A stretch of 63,700 nucleotides of DNA, counting the filler, from Bacteroidales bacterium (lineage in GTDB: Bacteria > Bacteroidota > Bacteroidia > Bacteroidales > CAIWKO01), in assembly GCA_035389045.1 (NCBI GenBank). It is 3 parts of 3 records of this genome, joined end to end, with 100 filler letters (N's around TTAATTAATTAA, not from the genome) between each part and the next. Parts side by side here need not be neighbours in the genome. Positions count along the whole stretch, not along the records: positions 23,199 to 46,275 come from DAOORA010000071.1; 2 more parts are not named here. One strand, given 5' to 3'. Below, piece after piece: positions 39,697 to 49,784 of the stretch. Numbering within the stretch: the stretch's first letter is position 1; each line of letters starts with the position of its first letter. The position numbers and the translations under genes were made by a program. A model generated the notes under the pieces. It did no database searches. It worked only from the letters and a program-made list of their open reading frames with translations, and was not told where the DNA came from.

Positions 39697-41874
39697 ATGA
39701 AAAAAATCTGTTTCATTACGGTTTATCTGATATGGATATTAAGCGCAACAGCTCAATCGTATTTTTCAGCCGATTCGAGGCTGTTTTTGGCAGACATGAA
39801 GTTTTGCGGCAATATCAATCGGTCAGCCACAGCAACGATCATGGAAAAATATCCGGTATATAAATTCGGGGATAAATATTATGTATCATGCCTGGCAAAG
39901 ACAATGGGAAATTTTGGCAGAAAAACACTTGAATCCCAGGGCATTATCACAGGATCTCAAATTGGAAATGTTGTTACCCTGCGTATCCCGCTTGAAGACT
40001 TTAATGAAAAATTATATATTCCGGGCATTTCATACATTGAGATAGCCGGAAAAGCCGCCCCGAACCTCAACCGCGCCATTAAAGATACCCGTACCGACAG
40101 TGTATGGAAGGGAATCATGCTGCCTCAGCCTTTTACAGGAAAAGATGTTTTGATAGGTATTACCGACTGGGGCTTTGATTATACCAACCCCATGTTTTAC
40201 GACACCACCTTGTCCCATACACGCATATTAAAAGCCTGGGATCAGTATCGCAACGCAGGACCTCCGCCGGCAGGTTTTACCTACGGAACGGAAATTGAGG
40301 GTGAAACAAACCTATTACTGACGCAGTGCGATACATTTAATATTTATGAATGGGCCACCCACGGCTCTCATGTGGCCGGCATTTGCGGAGGAAGCGGCGC
40401 CGGAACCCCTTACCGTGGTATTGCCTTTGAAGCAAATTATCTGATGGCCACTATCCTTGTGGATATGGCTGCCGTACTGGATGCCTATAACTGGATGTAC
40501 GATTATGCGCAGAGTGAAGGCAAGCGTCTGGTAATTAACCAGAGCTGGGGATTGTACTGGACTGGAACTCTTGACGGCACATCGCTGCTTAGCCAGGCCA
40601 TCAACCAGTATTCCTCCAACGGGGTAGTTTTTGTTTCAAGCGCCGGCAACAACGGGGATGTGAATATGCATGTAAAACACACCTTCAGCAGCCCCTCCGA
40701 TACCATGAAAACCCAGATCGTATTCGACAACTACAGTTATTACCCGAAAATGTGGGGACAATCCGTCACAATTTGGGGCGAAGCGGGTAACAGATTTGAT
40801 ATTTCAATTAAAGTCCTGAACAGTCTGAATGAGATCATTGCTGCTACACCGGTATATTCTTCTGATGATACAGCCTCTTATACTACCGGACAGATCATTA
40901 TCGGCTCCGACACTGTTTTTTATAACCTTGCCTCCGATTCGGCGAATCCGCTTAACAACCGTCCGCACATGCGTCTTCGTGTGCAAAACCTGCGTACCTC
41001 CCTCTATAAAATTGCCCTTTTTGCCAACGCTCCTGCCGGTACCATCCATTGCTGGAATATCATCGAGCTTACCAACGATGTCGGCAACTGGGGATCACCA
41101 TTCAATGCGCTGTTAACAGGTTGGAAAAACGGTGATTACTATTCAGGCATCAGTGAGCCCGCATGTACGCAAAGTGTGATCACGGTAGCAGCACATATGT
41201 CAGAATTGGAACTTCCCAACGGCAACATCGTGGGAGGCAGCATTGCCGCTTTCTCAAGTTATGGGCCTACTTACGACGGAAGGCTCAAACCCGATATTTC
41301 TGCTCCCGGGGTCAATGCCATTTCCTCTGTTTCGTCCTTTACCAACCAGGCGCTTTCTTCGCCTGCTGCTACCGTTTCCTTCGGAGGACGCTCATACCAG
41401 TTTGTACCCTTCTCGGGGACATCCATGTCGTCGCCCATGGTCACCGGTATCGTGGCACTGATGTTGCAGGCCAATCCGGCTCTTACACCCCAGCAGGTAA
41501 AAGACATCATTATCACAACAGCCCGCGAAGACATCCGCACCGGAATCATCCCTGATACGGGAAGCCTGCGGTGGGGATGGGGAAAAATTCATGCATGGAA
41601 CGCGGTAAGGATGGCTTATGCCGGTATTGCAGAAAACAAGACTATTGATAATTATATTATATATCCCAACCCCGCAGCAGATATCCTTCATATCATAGGC
41701 GATACCGGAGAACAGTCATTACAAATAAATATATATAACACCTTTGGTTCCCTCGTGTTTTCAAAACCCACACAGAACCAAACACTTGATGTCGGAAAAC
41801 TCAGCCCCGGCGTTTATCTGATGGATATAACCAACGGAAAAAAAAGAACCCAAAGAAAACTTGTCAAGTTATAA
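39697..41874 (+). CDS. S8 subtilisin-like serine peptidase, T9SS type A substrate
   Basis: Triad motifs 'ITDWG', 'HGSHVAG', 'GTSMSSP'; 'AGN' oxyanion; CTD 'IYPNP…GVY…KLVK'. Confidence 0.93.
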   Translation: MKKICFITVYLIWILSATAQSYFSADSRLFLADMKFCGNINRSATATIMEKYPVYKFGDKYYVSCLAKTMGNFGRKTLESQGIITGSQIGNVVTLRIPLEDFNEKLYIPGISYIEIAGKAAPNLNRAIKDTRTDSVWKGIMLPQPFTGKDVLIGITDWGFDYTNPMFYDTTLSHTRILKAWDQYRNAGPPPAGFTYGTEIEGETNLLLTQCDTFNIYEWATHGSHVAGICGGSGAGTPYRGIAFEANYLMATILVDMAAVLDAYNWMYDYAQSEGKRLVINQSWGLYWTGTLDGTSLLSQAINQYSSNGVVFVSSAGNNGDVNMHVKHTFSSPSDTMKTQIVFDNYSYYPKMWGQSVTIWGEAGNRFDISIKVLNSLNEIIAATPVYSSDDTASYTTGQIIIGSDTVFYNLASDSANPLNNRPHMRLRVQNLRTSLYKIALFANAPAGTIHCWNIIELTNDVGNWGSPFNALLTGWKNGDYYSGISEPACTQSVITVAAHMSELELPNGNIVGGSIAAFSSYGPTYDGRLKPDISAPGVNAISSVSSFTNQALSSPAATVSFGGRSYQFVPFSGTSMSSPMVTGIVALMLQANPALTPQQVKDIIITTAREDIRTGIIPDTGSLRWGWGKIHAWNAVRMAYAGIAENKTIDNYIIYPNPAADILHIIGDTGEQSLQINIYNTFGSLVFSKPTQNQTLDVGKLSPGVYLMDITNGKKRTQRKLVKL

Positions 41875-42195: not shown

Positions 42196-42792
42196 TTATA
42201 ACACCAACTGTATCATTCCGTTACGTGTTTTGGATTCACCGCTCAGTGTCTGGTAGGTAACCACATAATAATAATAGGCAGCCGGCATCAGCACCCCATT
42301 GTAATATCCATCCCATGCTGCATTTGTGCTGTTGGAAAAGAACATACTATGGTTATCCTTATCATAGATATTCAGGGAATAATTTTCCTGGCTGATCACT
42401 GAGAAAAAAGGATGCCAGGTATCATTATCGCCATCCTGGTTTGGAGTAAACGAATTTGGAATATAGCAATCGCTGCCTTCGAAAAGAATCAGCACTTCAA
42501 ATATGAATTCCTGTGAATGTGTGGCAATTTTCACAATATAATTACCTTCTTCAGTGATACTGATCAATGGGGTTGTATATCCGCCAGGCGTCCAGAAATA
42601 AGTAATGGCATCCGTCATGGTAGCATCAAGGGTAAGGATGGTGCTTTCATTCAGGGTGTGAACGGTATAAGAGGAATTCACTTTCAGTGTATCGTAGCGA
42701 GTTTCAGGTGATGGCGCATCCTGTTTTTTACAGGAAAAAAACAACATTGCTGACAACGATAAGTAAATAAATATGCTGAAAAATTTTTTCAT
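42196..42792 (-). CDS. Small lipoprotein with T9SS type B (gliding-motility-associated) C-terminal domain
   Basis: Lipobox 'LFFSC-KK'; 'YIPNSFTPNQDGDNDTW…IYD…WDG..NG…YYY…G.IQL'. Confidence 0.85.
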   Translation of the reverse strand: MKKFFSIFIYLSLSAMLFFSCKKQDAPSPETRYDTLKVNSSYTVHTLNESTILTLDATMTDAITYFWTPGGYTTPLISITEEGNYIVKIATHSQEFIFEVLILFEGSDCYIPNSFTPNQDGDNDTWHPFFSVISQENYSLNIYDKDNHSMFFSNSTNAAWDGYYNGVLMPAAYYYYVVTYQTLSGESKTRNGMIQLVL

Positions 42793-42819
42793 AATTTCAG
42801 ACCTGAGACAATTCAGTAC

Positions 42820-44514
42820 CTAAAACTGAAGACGGACATTAATGCCGGCATAATCAATAATCCCAAAATTATTCATTATTACCCTTTTCATAGGCACTCC
42901 GGAATGAATATTTATGATAACATTATCTTTCATATTAAACCCTAAGACCAGCCCTGCATTGGTAAGATTCTTAAATTCAGTGCCAAACAACAACCATTTC
43001 CTGTAAGTAAACAACATGCCCGGAGTAAAGTTGAAGATTCTTTCATTGTACTTCAATTCCAGGGCAGGAAGCATACCAAAATTATCGCTGATTTTGTAAT
43101 TGTATCCGGCAGCCAGCAGATATTCACGGGGAATAGTGTTTGAACTGATTACGCCGATATCCGGCGAGGTAAGATGAATGGCTGAAACGCCCACATACAA
43201 TGATTTCCAGCTATACCAAACGCCCACTCCAAGGTCAAGATTGTTTTTTGTGGTCCTGCCTGAAAAAACTTCCGATGTGCCAAACACAAAGCCATGGTTC
43301 TCATCAATCATATCGGGAAAACTCAGGTTGTCTTTGTTGATGTCACTTGAATAGTATGAAAGTGAAGCCCCAATACGTAAATTATGGTATCTCGCCAGGT
43401 TGAACCGGTATGAAAAAGTCACATCAACGGCTATTAATCCTTCCGCACCTCCGATAAACCTTCTGTAATTGGCACCTATACCACAGTTTTTCCTCTTTCC
43501 GAAATTAAAATCATAGGCGATACGGTATTCAAAAGGCACATTAAAATCGTTACCCGGCTTATAAAGCGGCTTATAAACCATTGTAGAAACATTGATGGTA
43601 TGACGTTGATTAAACCCCGTATAGGCAGGATTCACCGCAAAATTGTTCACCACGCCAACTTTATAATCCGGCACAGCTTCCATATTTTTATTCTTGGCAG
43701 CATTCGAATTCTTACGGTTTTGCTTTTTACCGGCTGACGCATTTTCTGCATTATAATCATCTATCACACTTGAATAACCCAGGGTGTCTGTTACTAAATT
43801 GTCGTTATTGACAGCTTGAGATATATTGTTTATTACCCGGTCTTCATTCGGATGAATCAGGTTCTGATCAATTTTAACGCCGTTGACATAACTTTGATCA
43901 ACAATTTCAGATTTTGCCAGTTCAACTTCTACAATTTCTTCTTCTTTTATAATATCTCTTGGATCAAAGTTGAAAGTCTTATCAAAGGAAGGTGAAGAAG
44001 CGGGTTCATGAACCGCAGTAAATTGAACAGTTTTCTTTTCAATGACAGGATTCTTTTTCGACGTCTTTACTGTATTATTCTCTAATAAAGATGTATTATC
44101 CCGACTGCCGGAAGAAATACCCCTATCCTGCACCCTGCTTTTATAAACATTCGGTGATGATTTCTCAACATTATTGCTTTCACTGTTATTAGCAGGGGAT
44201 ACTGTTTTTGAATTATATTCAGTTTTCAGTATAGGATTGGCAGGTGGCGTATATAAAGCAAGCTGCGCTGCGTCTGAATTGGTCTGACGATCTCTTTCAG
44301 AGAGTACATAAGTAATAATTCCTGTAGAAACAAGGAATATGGCAGAAATGATTATGATAATATTAGTGATATTGGTTCCGGAGTTTTTAAAACCTGCATT
44401 TCGTGGATTTACAATAGCAGATTTCATCATCTGCCAGTGCTCAGGAACAAATTCTGGTTCGTAACTGCCTAGTCTTTCCCGGAATAAATCGTCTATCTGA
44501 TTTTTTTTATCCAT
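42820..44514 (-). CDS. Anti-sigma-like N-terminus + TM helix + long polar linker + PorP/SprF-family beta-barrel
   Basis: N-terminal 'IDDLFRERL..YEP….HW', TM about aa 50-72, low-complexity linker; then 'NPAYTG', 'LSFPDMID…GF', 'DLGVGVWY', 'YVGVSA.HL..P', terminal Phe. Confidence 0.75.
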   Translation of the reverse strand: MDKKNQIDDLFRERLGSYEPEFVPEHWQMMKSAIVNPRNAGFKNSGTNITNIIIIISAIFLVSTGIITYVLSERDRQTNSDAAQLALYTPPANPILKTEYNSKTVSPANNSESNNVEKSSPNVYKSRVQDRGISSGSRDNTSLLENNTVKTSKKNPVIEKKTVQFTAVHEPASSPSFDKTFNFDPRDIIKEEEIVEVELAKSEIVDQSYVNGVKIDQNLIHPNEDRVINNISQAVNNDNLVTDTLGYSSVIDDYNAENASAGKKQNRKNSNAAKNKNMEAVPDYKVGVVNNFAVNPAYTGFNQRHTINVSTMVYKPLYKPGNDFNVPFEYRIAYDFNFGKRKNCGIGANYRRFIGGAEGLIAVDVTFSYRFNLARYHNLRIGASLSYYSSDINKDNLSFPDMIDENHGFVFGTSEVFSGRTTKNNLDLGVGVWYSWKSLYVGVSAIHLTSPDIGVISSNTIPREYLLAAGYNYKISDNFGMLPALELKYNERIFNFTPGMLFTYRKWLLFGTEFKNLTNAGLVLGFNMKDNVIINIHSGVPMKRVIMNNFGIIDYAGINVRLQF

Positions 44515-45076
44515 TTACTACTGACTCCTTTTTTTTAAGTTTTTGGATTCGGCTCATTAGAATCCGGCGGGCATTGAGTAAATGCCACTGAGAAGTGCTT
44601 TCGGTAATGTTCAGTATTTCGCCGATTTCTTTATGATTGTAATTTTCAAAAACATACATATTAAAAACAGAGCGGCTTGCAGGAGGCAAGTCTTCTATCA
44701 TCCTGATCAGGTCTTCTTCACCGAGTTTACTTACAGCATCATTCTCAATATGCACCGAGTCATTATTGATATTGAGAGGAACGGTATTATAATAACGGTT
44801 TTTTTCAAACCTGATCTTGTCGAGCGCTGTATTAACCATGACTTTCCTTATCCAGGCATTCAGATATTCGCCTTCTCCTTTGTACTTTTCCATGTTCTGA
44901 AAAACTTTCAGGAATCCGGTATTCAGTATCTCTACTGCATCATCGCTGTTTTTTGCGTACCGAAGACAAATATTCATCATCTGCCCGTAAAACATTTTAT
45001 ACATTTTTTCCTGAGCGAACGAATTCCCGTCCCTGCATAATTTTATCAACTCCTTCAGCTCTTTCCCGGGATTCAT
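44507..45076 (-). CDS. ECF RNA polymerase sigma factor
   Basis: Region 2 'CLRY…DA.EI…GF.KVF…AWIRKVMVN..LD'; region 4 'LP..SR.VFN….E…H.EI…L.I.ESTS..HL..AR'. Confidence 0.95.
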   Translation of the reverse strand: MNPGKELKELIKLCRDGNSFAQEKMYKMFYGQMMNICLRYAKNSDDAVEILNTGFLKVFQNMEKYKGEGEYLNAWIRKVMVNTALDKIRFEKNRYYNTVPLNINNDSVHIENDAVSKLGEEDLIRMIEDLPPASRSVFNMYVFENYNHKEIGEILNITESTSQWHLLNARRILMSRIQKLKKKESVVNG

Positions 45077-45142
45077 ATGCTCAATTTAATTAATAAACGC
45101 ATTCTTTATAAAAAGACTTGGTTAAACAGGTGTTTTTATTCC

Positions 45143-45200
45143 AGACGTGATAACTCATAAAATGGTTGTACCACGTTGCCAGGGATTTAATGCAAATATA
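45143..45200 (-). promoter_or_regulatory. Candidate ECF-type promoter (CAACC-N16-CGTCT) with an upstream sigma-A -7 box
   Basis: Minus strand: TATATTTG (45200-45193), then CAACC (45168-45164), a 16-nt spacer, and CGTCT (45147-45143). Confidence 0.5.
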
Positions 45201-46649: not shown

Positions 46650-49600
46650 ATGCAAAACAAAGGAGTTTTCAGGTTTTTAGCGATTTTGATCGCGCTGGTA
46701 TGTTTATTTCAGCTCTCATTTACTTTATGTACGCGAATGGTTGAAAAAGATGCTAAAGAATTTGCTTTAAGCGGTAATGTTGACAGCCTCGCCAAAGCGA
46801 TGGCCAAAGGAATCCCTGAAATGGAGATGTACTATAAAGACTCCATAGTCAACAAGAGGGAACAACATTATCTGGATTCAATGTCGGGCGAGGTAGTATA
46901 TAATTTTGCGTGGATACGTAAATATTCCTACAAAGACTGTAAAGCACGTGAAATAAATCTCGGGCTTGACCTTAAAGGCGGTATGAATGTTACCCTCGAA
47001 GTGTCCATTCCCGATATCATCAGAGCATTGGCCAGCAACTCCAAAGATCCTTTCTTTAATAAAGTGATGGATGATGCCGTTGAAATGCAAAAAAACAGTT
47101 CTGCCGATTTTGTTTCATTATTTGAAGCTTCTTTTAAAAAGAACAATACCGCTAATGCCAAACTAGCGTCTTTCTTCATAGTCGGACTAAAAGACAAAAT
47201 CAATTTTAACACTTCCGATGAAGATGTTCTGAAAGCCATACGTATTGAAACCGATGGCGCCGTTGACCGGACCTTTAATATTTTGCGTACCCGTATCGAC
47301 CGCTTTGGCGTTGCCCAGCCCAATATCCAGAAATTATCGGGATCAGGAAGGATCCTGATCGAATTGCCCGGGATAAAAGAACCCGAACGTGTCAGAAAAC
47401 TTCTTCAGGGAACTGCCCAATTGGGATTTTGGGAAACCTATGAATATAAAGATGTTTACGGATTCCTGGAACAGGCCGATAAAAAATTGAAAGCAGTTCT
47501 GTCTTCAGGTGATTCTCTTGAAATAAAAGACAGCACTAATGTTTCAGAAGGCGATTCGGTCACGAAAGAAGAGGTGGCTGTTACAGAAGAAAAAAAAGAC
47601 ACATCCCTCACAGAAACGGCCATAAGCGATTCGGCAAAAGATACCACGGGGCAGGGTCAGCAATCGTTTGAGGAATATGCAGCTGAACATCCGCTTCTTG
47701 CATACTTACAGCCGGCTTTAATACAGGATGAAGCAGGGAATTATTATCCCAATAAAGGCCCGGTCATTGGTTATTGCCAGTCATTTGATACCAACCGCGT
47801 TATGACGATGTTGCGCAATCCGCAGATTCAGACCATATTTCCGCGCGAAATCCGTTTTATGTGGAGTGTCAAAGCCATTGACGAAAAAGGCGCCACGCAT
47901 CAGCTGATAGCCCTCAAATCCTCACGCGACGGCACGGCAGCACTGGCCGGCGATGTCATTGTAGATGCCCGTCAGGATATTGATCAGCAACAGGGTAACC
48001 AGATATCAATGAGTATGAACTCCGAAGGAGCCTCCATCTGGAAGAATCTGACGGCTAATAACATAGGGAAATCAGTCGCTATTGTTCTTGATAACCTCGT
48101 ATATTCATACCCCACAGTGCAGGGTGAAATACCCAACGGACAATCATCAATAACCGGAAATTTCACACTGGAGGAAGCCAAAGACCTTGCCAATATTCTT
48201 AAAGCCGGAAAACTACCCGCCCCGACAAAAATTGTTGAAGAAGCCGTCGTAGGTCCATCGCTGGGTAAAGAAGCCATTAATGCAGGTTTGCTGTCTTTTA
48301 TCATTGCTTTTGTGCTCGTACTGATCTATATGGCGCTGTATTACAATACTGCCGGATTAGTGGCCGATACAGCCCTGCTGGTTAATGTTTTCTTCCTCAT
48401 GGGCGTTTTGGCCTCTCTGGGCGCCACCCTCACCTTACCCGGCATTGCCGGTATTGTACTCACCATGGGTATGGCCGTGGACGCTAACGTTATTATTTAT
48501 GAGCGTATCAAGGAGGAGGTAAGAGCCGGAAAGGGTATGAAACTGGCAATTGCAGACGGATACAAACATGCCTATTCGGCCATCATCGACGGTAATGTTA
48601 CCACCATATTGACCGGTATCGTATTGTTTATATTTGGAACCGGCCCCATTCAGGGTTTTGCTACTACACTTATCATCGGTATCCTCACCTCTCTGTTTAC
48701 CGCTATTTTCTTGTCGCGTTTGATCTTCGAAGGCCTGAGCGCCAAAAACCGTGCGATTAAATTCGGGAACAAATACACCATCAATGCTTTCACCAATACG
48801 AAGATAAAGTTTATTGAAATTCGTAAAAAGCTGTATATTGTTTCTTTGTCGATCATTGTCATCGGTATTATCTCTCTTTTTGTCAGAGGTATGAATTTTG
48901 GTATTGACTTTACCGGAGGACGTACTTATGTGGTTCGTTTTGACAAGGATGTAAAAACCAATGACATACGCACTTTACTCGAAAAATCTTTTGGACAAAC
49001 CCCCGAGGTAAAGACTTTCGGGCCGGGTAACCAGGTGAAAGTCACCACAAAATATATGATTGATAACACCGATAAGGCAACGGATTCCATAGTGGAAAGC
49101 AAACTGTATGAAGGTTTGAAAACTGTTTATACAGCCCCGATCACCAGGGATGAGTTCCTGAGCGATAATGCCGGCAAATTGCTGGGGAAATTGAGCTCCA
49201 ATAAAGTCGGGCCAACCATTGCCGACGATATTAAATTATCGTCACTCTATGCCCTTATTATTGCGCTGTTTGCTATATTTGTATATATAGCAATCCGTTT
49301 TAAGAAATGGCAATTCGGACTTGGCGGTGTGATTTCATTAACCCATGACACATTAATTGTTATATCCATGTATTCGCTGTTCTGGGGATTATTGCCTTTC
49401 GGAATGGAGGTTGACCAGGCATTTATTGCCGCTATTCTTACCATTATCGGATACTCTATTAACGACTCTGTGATCATCTTCGACAGGATCAGGGAATACA
49501 CCGGGCTTTATCCCAAACGCGACATAAAAGAAAACATGAATGCCGCCATGAACAGCACCCTGGGCCGAACCATTAATACCGCCGGAACAACATTGATTAC

Positions 49601-49784
49601 ACTGTTTGCCATATTTATACTGGGTGGTGAAATGATCAGGGGATTCATTTTTGCATTATTAGTGGGTATTCTTGTCGGTACGTATTCTTCCATCTTTAAT
49701 GCCACACCTGTCGCATATGATTTATTAATCTGGCAGCAAAGGCGAAAAGAAAAGAAAGCGTTGAAACTTCAGGCGAAAAAATAA
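46650..49784 (+). CDS. secDF: Protein translocase subunit SecDF (fused)
   Basis: 'LGLDLKGG', 'RIDRFGV', 'GMAVDANV', 'GIDFTGG', 'GYSINDSV..FDRIRE'. Confidence 0.97.
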   Translation: MQNKGVFRFLAILIALVCLFQLSFTLCTRMVEKDAKEFALSGNVDSLAKAMAKGIPEMEMYYKDSIVNKREQHYLDSMSGEVVYNFAWIRKYSYKDCKAREINLGLDLKGGMNVTLEVSIPDIIRALASNSKDPFFNKVMDDAVEMQKNSSADFVSLFEASFKKNNTANAKLASFFIVGLKDKINFNTSDEDVLKAIRIETDGAVDRTFNILRTRIDRFGVAQPNIQKLSGSGRILIELPGIKEPERVRKLLQGTAQLGFWETYEYKDVYGFLEQADKKLKAVLSSGDSLEIKDSTNVSEGDSVTKEEVAVTEEKKDTSLTETAISDSAKDTTGQGQQSFEEYAAEHPLLAYLQPALIQDEAGNYYPNKGPVIGYCQSFDTNRVMTMLRNPQIQTIFPREIRFMWSVKAIDEKGATHQLIALKSSRDGTAALAGDVIVDARQDIDQQQGNQISMSMNSEGASIWKNLTANNIGKSVAIVLDNLVYSYPTVQGEIPNGQSSITGNFTLEEAKDLANILKAGKLPAPTKIVEEAVVGPSLGKEAINAGLLSFIIAFVLVLIYMALYYNTAGLVADTALLVNVFFLMGVLASLGATLTLPGIAGIVLTMGMAVDANVIIYERIKEEVRAGKGMKLAIADGYKHAYSAIIDGNVTTILTGIVLFIFGTGPIQGFATTLIIGILTSLFTAIFLSRLIFEGLSAKNRAIKFGNKYTINAFTNTKIKFIEIRKKLYIVSLSIIVIGIISLFVRGMNFGIDFTGGRTYVVRFDKDVKTNDIRTLLEKSFGQTPEVKTFGPGNQVKVTTKYMIDNTDKATDSIVESKLYEGLKTVYTAPITRDEFLSDNAGKLLGKLSSNKVGPTIADDIKLSSLYALIIALFAIFVYIAIRFKKWQFGLGGVISLTHDTLIVISMYSLFWGLLPFGMEVDQAFIAAILTIIGYSINDSVIIFDRIREYTGLYPKRDIKENMNAAMNSTLGRTINTAGTTLITLFAIFILGGEMIRGFIFALLVGILVGTYSSIFNATPVAYDLLIWQQRRKEKKALKLQAKK

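Follow-up and report, generated by a model that had tools for sequence, protein, structure and literature searches.

The window examined here is a 63,700-nucleotide (nt) stretch of DNA from a Bacteroidales bacterium, whose source genome is a 4.46-Mb draft metagenome-assembled genome (MAG) of 135 contigs that is 96% complete. Contig C71 (DAOORA010000071.1) occupies window positions 23199-46275, and the rest of the window is made up of other contigs, joined by concatenation. [quoted passage not shown] A first-pass annotation, made from the sequence alone, had described these genes as tightly coupled, and the open reading frames (ORFs) were found exactly as claimed, with an 8-bp overlap between the sigma and fusion genes and a 27-bp gap between the fusion and partner genes. 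This three-gene operon is a real, conserved and expressed-looking module.

The fusion protein is composed of four segments, all encoded on the minus strand. The first is a hydrophilic N-segment of 51 residues (aa 1-51, 44362-44514), predicted to be the cytoplasmic, sigma-binding part of the protein, with a conserved core at aa 1-33; many positions among aa 1-31 are invariant in an alignment of 16 family members, and apart from the barrel no region is better conserved. A single transmembrane (TM) helix follows at aa 52-70 (44305-44361; Kyte-Doolittle scale, 19-residue window, mean 2.53), close to the aa 50-72 proposed for it beforehand, and by hydrophobicity scan the same TM layout is shared by 16 of 18 PorP-type proteins and by all nine of the Dma-type proteins introduced below. 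The third segment is a low-complexity linker (aa 71-284, 43663-44304), predicted to be a periplasm-spanning tether, which is variable and gap-rich in the alignment. Composition and alignment agree with its earlier description as a linker of about 210 residues rich in S, N, K and E: over aa 73-280, N accounts for 13.5% and S for 11.1% of residues, and hydrophobic residues make up 21% of the linker, compared with 35% of the barrel. Within this variable tether there is a conserved island, SSV(I/T)DDY (aa 247-254, window 43753-43776), in which D253 and Y254 are invariant; it stands about 30 residues ahead of the barrel, with a K-rich stretch after it, and could serve as a processing or docking site.

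The fourth segment (aa 285-564, 42823-43662) is an outer-membrane barrel of the PorP/SprF family, recognised by PF11751 and from an AlphaFold2 model, with a TIGR03519 score just below the cutoff. PF11751 (PorP_SprF) matches aa 289-534 with 77.0 bits (cutoff 22.3; E 2e-21), and the C-terminus reads ...VRLQF, so the segment is, as had been proposed, a PorP/SprF barrel with a terminal Phe and not a generic one. The AlphaFold2 model of aa 271-564, built from a 49-sequence alignment, has 14 strands, with a predicted local distance difference test (pLDDT) value of 91.8 and a predicted template modelling score (pTM) of 0.87. Foldseek places highest, as structural matches of this model, barrels of the FadL family and chain F in two entries for the T9SS translocon, 8gl6 and 6h3i (query TM-score, TMq, 0.65-0.66; root-mean-square deviation 4.3-4.5), a chain that we take to be PorV, the shuttle for type-A CTDs. 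A sequence search of the PDB with the barrel gave 0 matches at E up to 1, there being no solved PorP that is recognisable by sequence.

About 280 residues thus stand before the barrel, and, as annotated, there is no signal peptide at the N-terminus of the fusion. No Pfam or NCBIfam model matches these 280 residues, and neither a FecR domain nor a TonB-dependent receptor nor an N-terminal signalling domain was found in the three operon proteins with Pfam and NCBIfam models at E up to 1. The order of segments from which the middle protein had been conceived as a trans-envelope anti-sigma factor holds.

Kinship to the Dma regulators

The build of the fusion is also that of the Dma proteins, which, according to the available portions of two papers (PMC10927553; PMC13088901), begin with a sigma-binding segment at the N-terminus, continue through a TM helix and a disordered tether, end in an OMP_b-brl_2 barrel of 8 strands, and are encoded beside an ECF21 sigma factor. 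In the available portion of the first of these, Das1 was pulled down by Dma1(1-40), and tagged Dma1 was found as one chain across both membranes with its barrel in the outer membrane (PMC10927553).

The sigma factor of the operon carries the Pfam domains Sigma70_r2 and r4_2 and scores 80 bits with TIGR02937, for which the cutoff is 42.9. In phmmer comparisons, it reaches 76-139 bits with nine sigmas from Dma loci versus 28-58 bits with six other ECF sigmas of its own genome, and by these measures of similarity it appears to group with the Dma-associated (Das-type) sigmas. The nine reference loci had to be sought elsewhere: no classical Dma-type protein was found in the source genome, and therefore 18 other genomes of the order were sampled, in which long OMP_b-brl_2 frames led to 15 loci and to nine pairs of a sigma with a protein of N-segment, TM helix, linker and barrel. 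The nine Dma-type proteins of this set come from other families of the order, and OMP_b-brl_2 was confirmed by Pfam in the three that were scanned.

The N-segments provide the second line of kinship. When the segments preceding the TM helix were compared by hhalign, the fusion family (four sequences) aligned with the nine Dma-type proteins with a probability of 94.4 and a score of 36.6 over 35 columns; in the controls, the reversed Dma-type alignment gave a probability of 0.17 and a score of 8.3 over 11 columns, and 30 column shuffles scored at most 12.2. A search of the ESM Atlas with aa 1-80 gave leads to OMP_b-brl_2 and CHU_C proteins, which were tested afterwards by hhalign. From the homology to the Dma N-segment, we infer that the N-segment of the fusion would bind the co-encoded sigma.

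The fusion is thus likely to be a Dma-class anti-sigma factor in which the 8-strand barrel has been swapped for a T9SS barrel of the PorP/SprF family with its own cargo partner, and the architecture and family placement of the module can be held with considerable confidence. In the first-pass annotation the design had seemed more isolated than it is, being a variant of the published Dma family and present in several Bacteroidia families.

Spread of the design, the partner and the paralogous operons

In a collection of 5.8 billion proteins, 23 of the 26 matches to the fusion are full-length and uninterrupted, with lengths of 561-622 aa and identities of 43-59%; these relatives all come from Bacteroidales or Bacteroidota MAGs and are named in their sources only as 'PorP/SprF family'. 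Because 23 full-length relatives are uninterrupted, the fusion is not an assembly artefact, and with 14 species-level loci besides, it is not confined to this assembly. At the 14 loci, taken from species-representative genomes, the sigma is present in 12, the partner in 13 and all three genes in 11, and of the three incomplete loci, L023 is cut by the start of its contig, L030 is cut by the end of its contig and L019 is masked by a run of N. The 8-bp overlap between sigma and fusion genes is kept at every one of these loci that has a readable junction. Among 401 sampled genomes of the order, the full-length fusion was found in its own genus only (G000, G342 and G689), and two further genomes yielded stand-alone barrels only.

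The method of searching proved decisive for what lies beyond this family. A word-indexed search with the barrel against longer proteins returned its own family only (26 of 26), and the best 150 matches of PF11751 in 301 Bacteroidota genomes all fell in frames of 271-371 aa, a survey that is blind to weaker-scoring fused forms; an exhaustive HMMER search was needed to reach other fused families. Run with the barrel against 1.84 billion representatives, it gave 640 matches at E up to 1e-3, and among the best 150 or so of these there are 13 proteins from outside the family, 431-640 aa long and with the barrel at the C-terminus, all of which show the N-segment motif, TM helix, low-complexity linker and barrel. 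By hhalign, the N-segments of these other-family fusions match the fusion family with a probability of 96.8 and the Dma type with 96.3. When 401 genomes of the class were searched with a profile made from them, at least 13 genomes, distributed over four GTDB families (f1, f219, f225 and f251), proved to contain fusions in long frames. At ten such loci (f219, f225 and f251), a sigma lies directly upstream in every case, confirmed by Pfam in the four that were scanned, and a small lipoprotein-like ORF overlaps the 3' end of the fusion gene in eight, with CHU_C above the Pfam cutoff in all seven scanned. The same three-gene design is present in at least three other Bacteroidia families, and the conservation of the partner gene, a point on which the earlier proposal depended, is borne out by 13 of 14 related loci and by eight of ten in other families.

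The barrel tree contains six changes between fused and stand-alone forms. A tree with all fused forms in one clade is not rejected by an approximately unbiased (AU) test (p 0.247), in which the group was chosen after the first tree had been seen. One origin of the fusion and several origins are both compatible with the tree and the test.

The partner itself consists of a lipoprotein-type signal, a small Ig-like domain at about aa 32-104 and, at its extreme C-terminus, the type-B CTD (aa 111-196, nt 42205-42462, minus strand). The CTD is identified by PF13585 CHU_C at aa 111-196 with 52.3 bits (cutoff 27) and by the type B sorting model TIGR04131 with 58 bits (cutoff 35). Among 12 aligned sequences, identity over the partner is 51-70%, with a conserved CTD, and the lipobox S-C-K-K-Q, with its Cys21, is invariant throughout (S20, C21, K22, K23 and Q24). 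The AlphaFold2 model of the partner (pLDDT 78.8) has two beta-sandwich domains, and a structure search with it returned no specific structural neighbour.

Evidence on the link between barrel and partner comes from loci at which the fusion is absent. The nearest stand-alone barrels, those of G476, from the same family, and of G675, are each directly followed by a gene for a CHU_C lipoprotein, and the one beside the G476 barrel is clearly homologous to the partner. Neither barrel gene has a sigma immediately upstream, and the stand-alone barrels examined carry ordinary signal peptides. In addition, the one open frame of the database protein P0072 (519 aa) encodes both a PorP_SprF barrel, at aa 43-302, and a lipoprotein-like CHU_C part, at aa 430-515; it may be a fusion that exists in nature, or else the genes of a barrel and its partner read through as one. 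Because the pair occurs without a sigma in G476 and G675 and as a single chain in P0072, the barrel and the partner can be argued to interact physically. According to the available portions of the published work, PorP-PG1035 and SprF-SprB form complexes, and type-B cargo depends on its cognate PorP/SprF shuttle (PMC9143113; PMC12618676). By analogy with these complexes, and in view of the conserved gene pair, the barrel would rather probably dock with the partner. The simplest history is one in which a Dma-type N-module and a sigma were joined onto a pre-existing barrel-cargo pair. At a further locus, L080 (G675:C162:13600-18600), a stand-alone PorP and a 121-aa CHU_C lipoprotein are placed tail-to-tail with a Dma-like sigma/anti-sigma pair, the anti-sigma of which has 395 aa and a weak match to OMP_b-brl_2 (19.9 bits).

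The source genome also contains two paralogous sigmas, with 112 and 105 bits to the sigma of the operon, each of which heads another operon. The C18 operon (G000:C18:14735-16233; L017:1236-2734) has two genes, for an ECF sigma and for a 316-aa protein in which an N-segment of the Dma type is followed by a TM helix (about aa 70-88), a linker and, at the C-terminus, a type-B CTD (CHU_C 83 bits). N-segments of the C18 type align with those of the Dma type with an hhalign probability of 96.4, with shuffles scoring at most 11.8, and the same build is common to about 43 full-length database clusters, which are named only 'gliding motility-associated C-terminal domain protein' and none of them as an anti-sigma. 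In the C61 operon (G000:C61:375-7589; L016), the genes for a sigma and a 529-aa protein are followed by two cargo genes with type-A CTDs (PKD; SprB-repeat/DUF7619). The 529-aa protein has a Dma-like N-segment, a TM-like stretch and the ending ...GIRYFF, with no Pfam match and no assignable barrel; it was rejected as a PorP fusion, as phmmer shows no similarity to PorP-type proteins.

The Dma N-module thus occurs in three combinations: with an OMP_b-brl_2 barrel, with a PorP/SprF barrel, and with the CTD bound by barrels of the latter kind. The main argument of this analysis starts here: because the module is joined to either the barrel or the CTD, we infer that docking of CTD and barrel is part of the signalling path, and that the CTD is not just neighbouring cargo.

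Promoter, transcripts and surroundings

A conserved promoter-like element, CCAAGT-N16-CGTTT, is located at 45095-45121 on the minus strand, with its -35-like part at 45116-45121 and its -10-like part at 45095-45099, and ends 18 nt before the start codon of the sigma gene. It is found upstream of the sigma in 13 of 13 aligned sequences, one of which has CCCAGT. Within the 4.46-Mb genome, the exact pattern has a single occurrence, and CCAAGT and CGTTT at eight other spacings (12-15 and 17-20) have 0 occurrences. To judge from the sequence, the element is probably an autoregulatory ECF promoter. The second-best match to its position weight matrix (PWM), GCAAGT-N16-CGTTT with 28.4 bits, lies at G000:C98:4204-4236 (L048), 23 nt upstream of a 314-aa ORF; this ORF is followed by a gene for an 1852-aa protein, with no Pfam match above cutoff and a weak C-terminal FlgD_ig-like match. 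The C98 site was rejected as a conserved target of the sigma, the gene not being found in two genomes of the same genus that carry the operon.

Farther upstream, about 115 nt from the sigma start, the sequence TATATTTG (45187-45200, minus strand) is conserved in closer relatives. The -7 motif of Bacteroidota housekeeping promoters is TAnnTTTG, which TATATTTG fits, and the site could be a second, basal promoter, accounting for an RNA contig that reaches 45141. In a scan for consensus sigma-70 promoters, 16 matches were obtained against a shuffle mean of 12.4, no better than chance, and no terminator-like sites were found in the scan made alongside it.

RNA contigs from three activated-sludge metatranscriptome runs (X1, X2 and X3) show 0 differences to all three genes. 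The junction of partner and fusion is bridged by record 9 of X2 and record 13 of X3, and that of fusion and sigma by record 5 of X1 and record 12 of X2. These runs are from one year and one habitat, possibly from one campaign, and DNA carry-over is possible. The contigs are compatible with expression of the three genes as one unit, short of proving a single transcript. Their ends disagree, lying at 45070 in X1, at 45068 in X3 and at up to 45141 in X2, and no start site is claimed.

The neighbours of the operon are a convergent S8 peptidase gene on one side and a PfkB kinase gene upstream. The first of these, at 39697-41874 on the plus strand, encodes an S8 subtilase with a type-A CTD (Por_Secre_tail 56.3 bits) and is another T9SS cargo gene. 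A large SecDF-like ORF at 46650-49784 lies off contig C71, so that the operon and this ORF are not genuinely adjacent. The source genome has T9SS core genes, as represented by SprA (561.9 bits) and GldM (107.6 bits).

Proposed mechanism and known systems

In the mechanism proposed here, the first 35-50 residues of the 564-aa protein would keep the ECF sigma, which is co-translated with it, on the cytoplasmic side of the inner membrane, by homology to Dma1, in which Das1 is bound by the first 40 residues. The chain would then cross the periplasm by way of one TM helix and a disordered tether, about 210 aa long, and reach the outer membrane, where the PorP/SprF barrel would dock the 198-aa lipoprotein-like protein of the same operon by its type-B CTD. 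The sigma would be released on a change at the barrel or the partner end, presumably via proteolysis of the tether as proposed for Dma1, and the freed sigma would drive at least its own operon from CCAAGT-N16-CGTTT.

Several observations weigh against reading the fusion as a Dma-class anti-sigma with a T9SS barrel and a cargo of its own. The homology of the N-segment to the Dma type amounts to 35 aligned columns in all, and a single-sequence search of the source genome with aa 1-75 missed even the two paralogous N-segments. TIGR03519 scores the fusion at 89.4 bits, which is 1.15 bits below the NCBI cutoff of 90.55. No regulon beyond the operon was found in scans of the genome with the exact promoter pattern and the PWM. 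At two of the ten other-family loci, L051 and L065, no partner gene adjoins the fusion, and because of such loci a CTD partner is not obligatory for the PorP-fused class. A lipobox, moreover, is unusual for T9SS cargo; because it is invariant here, the partner may remain periplasmic-side, and export by the T9SS is a route that the lipobox leaves open. Finally, the assembly of a barrel that has a tether to the inner membrane is an open question even for Dma1, according to the available portion of PMC10927553.

As to what such a switch would sense, it is possible, if on balance improbable, that the barrel is a mere outer-membrane anchor or stress sensor, as proposed for Dma1, and that the partner, as a surface protein produced when it is required, is not the input but the output of the sigma. 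With the operon's own promoter as the sole strong match in the genome, no non-regulatory product other than the partner is predicted; the fused anti-sigma dispenses with a partner at two of ten loci, and classical Dma proteins operate with a plain 8-strand barrel, all of which such a sensor would accommodate. It is less easily reconciled with the barrel-partner pair, whose existence without a sigma (G476 and G675) and as one chain (P0072) argues for physical interaction, and a fusion of N-module and CTD is hard to account for if the CTD is mere cargo.

That T9SS activity or barrel occupancy is the signal, as the first-pass annotation had suggested, is tentative and on balance improbable. A CTD would fill the barrel only if the T9SS exports the partner, and an empty or occupied barrel, or stalled cargo, would lead to cleavage of the tether and release of the sigma, a checkpoint comparable to FlgM/sigma-28. 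This would suit the occurrence of the Dma N-module on both sides of the PorP-CTD pair (on the barrel here, on the CTD in C18 and about 43 clusters), the conservation of the barrel-partner pair, the position of the C61 paralog upstream of two type-A CTD cargo genes, the T9SS core genes of the genome and, from the available portion of PMC7712824, the influence of the CTD protein PorA on PorXY-SigP signalling in P. gingivalis. However, the partner is missing at two of ten related loci, its lipobox leaves export by the T9SS in doubt, and the promoter motif of the operon is found on no T9SS gene. In a wider and still doubtful formulation, the docking of a CTD on a PorP/SprF barrel would be the signalling joint of a trans-envelope switch to which the Dma module can be attached on either side. 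Under this formulation, again a speculative one, C18 would have the module on the CTD with the barrel in trans, and the operon fusion would have it on the barrel, while a separate lipoprotein carries the CTD. If this were true, Bacteroidota would gate an ECF sigma by a secretion checkpoint, in which a CTD dedicated to the role of 'reporter' is delivered or anchored in dependence on the T9SS.

The two remaining explanations deny the anti-sigma. It is very improbable that the fusion acts as a PorP/SprF shuttle whose N-terminal leader is exceptionally long and is cleaved slowly or not at all, and that the sigma gene beside it is incidental. The N-terminal 280 residues do match no Pfam or NCBIfam model, and the sources do call the relatives only 'PorP/SprF family', but the N-segment is the best-conserved part outside the barrel and is homologous to Dma-type N-segments; the 8-bp overlap with the sigma recurs wherever the junction is readable, the sigma precedes the fusion in ten of ten other-family loci, and in the stand-alone barrels examined the signal peptide is of the ordinary kind and no sigma gene comes immediately before. 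A merger of separate anti-sigma and PorP genes by assembly or gene calling, conceivable in a window of concatenated contigs from a draft MAG, can be dismissed, as the operon sits well within C71, the same uninterrupted frame is found in 23 independent database clusters and 12 species-level loci, among which the linker differs both in sequence and in length, and contigs from RNA libraries match it with 0 differences.

With respect to the literature, no published description of a PorP/SprF-fused anti-sigma with a CTD partner was found in a search that covered subscription journals thinly, so that absence from print is unproven. The terms PorP and T9SS have 0 occurrences in the Dma papers PMC10927553 and PMC13088901, whose cited references brought nothing further, and neither PorP_SprF, CHU_C and OMP_b-brl_2 nor their accessions occur in one supplementary file of the ECF reclassification, other supplements of which may bear on the matter.

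Among known systems, the PorP/SprF shuttle pairs, namely PorP-PG1035(-PorE) of P. gingivalis and SprF-SprB and the Fjoh pairs of F. johnsoniae, share with the operon a PF11751 barrel and a type-B CTD gene directly downstream, as described in the available portions of PMC9143113 and PMC12618676. These shuttles have a cleavable signal peptide, whereas the fusion has about 280 residues of N-segment, TM helix and tether in its place, and the operon differs further in its overlapping ECF sigma gene and in its tiny, 198-aa cargo with an invariant lipobox. The FecA-FecR-FecI system and the SusC-like/anti-sigma/ECF systems of Bacteroides polysaccharide utilization loci are well-known means of cell-surface signalling. 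The logic that runs from an outer-membrane barrel through an inner-membrane anti-sigma to an ECF sigma is common to these systems and the operon, but they employ two proteins for what the fusion would do in one polypeptide. FlgM is a soluble anti-sigma, acting on sigma-28, that is itself exported; it offers an analogy only, without homology, for a T9SS checkpoint in which the state of an anti-sigma is tied to a secretion machine. PorXY-SigP of P. gingivalis likewise ties an ECF sigma to the T9SS with a CTD protein, PorA, as input, but in the available portion of PMC7712824 it is a two-component system in which PorX binds SigP directly, with no anti-sigma and no barrel fusion.

The closest relative of the fusion is Dma. 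Because the PorP/SprF barrel family has known binding partners, a candidate input can be defined for a regulator of the Dma type, namely the PorP/SprF barrel with a dedicated, co-encoded type-B CTD ligand; if true, this would be the first physical link of T9SS cargo anchoring to transcription, for which the fusions of N-module and CTD and the stand-alone barrel-partner pairs would be ready natural controls. To our knowledge, Dma-type regulators are the only proteins proposed to link the exterior of a Gram-negative cell to its cytoplasm in a single chain, and the operon would widen their family past OMP_b-brl_2 barrels and past gut Bacteroides. Dma and the fusion have in common a short N-terminal segment, one TM helix, a long disordered tether and a C-terminal outer-membrane barrel, as well as a gene that overlaps that of an ECF sigma of the same clade, and Dma2, like the fusion, is a member of a three-gene operon. 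They differ in the barrel, which in Dma is an 8-strand OMP_b-brl_2 and in the fusion a PorP_SprF of 14 strands, and in the third gene of the fusion operon, which encodes a type-B CTD lipoprotein matching the barrel family.

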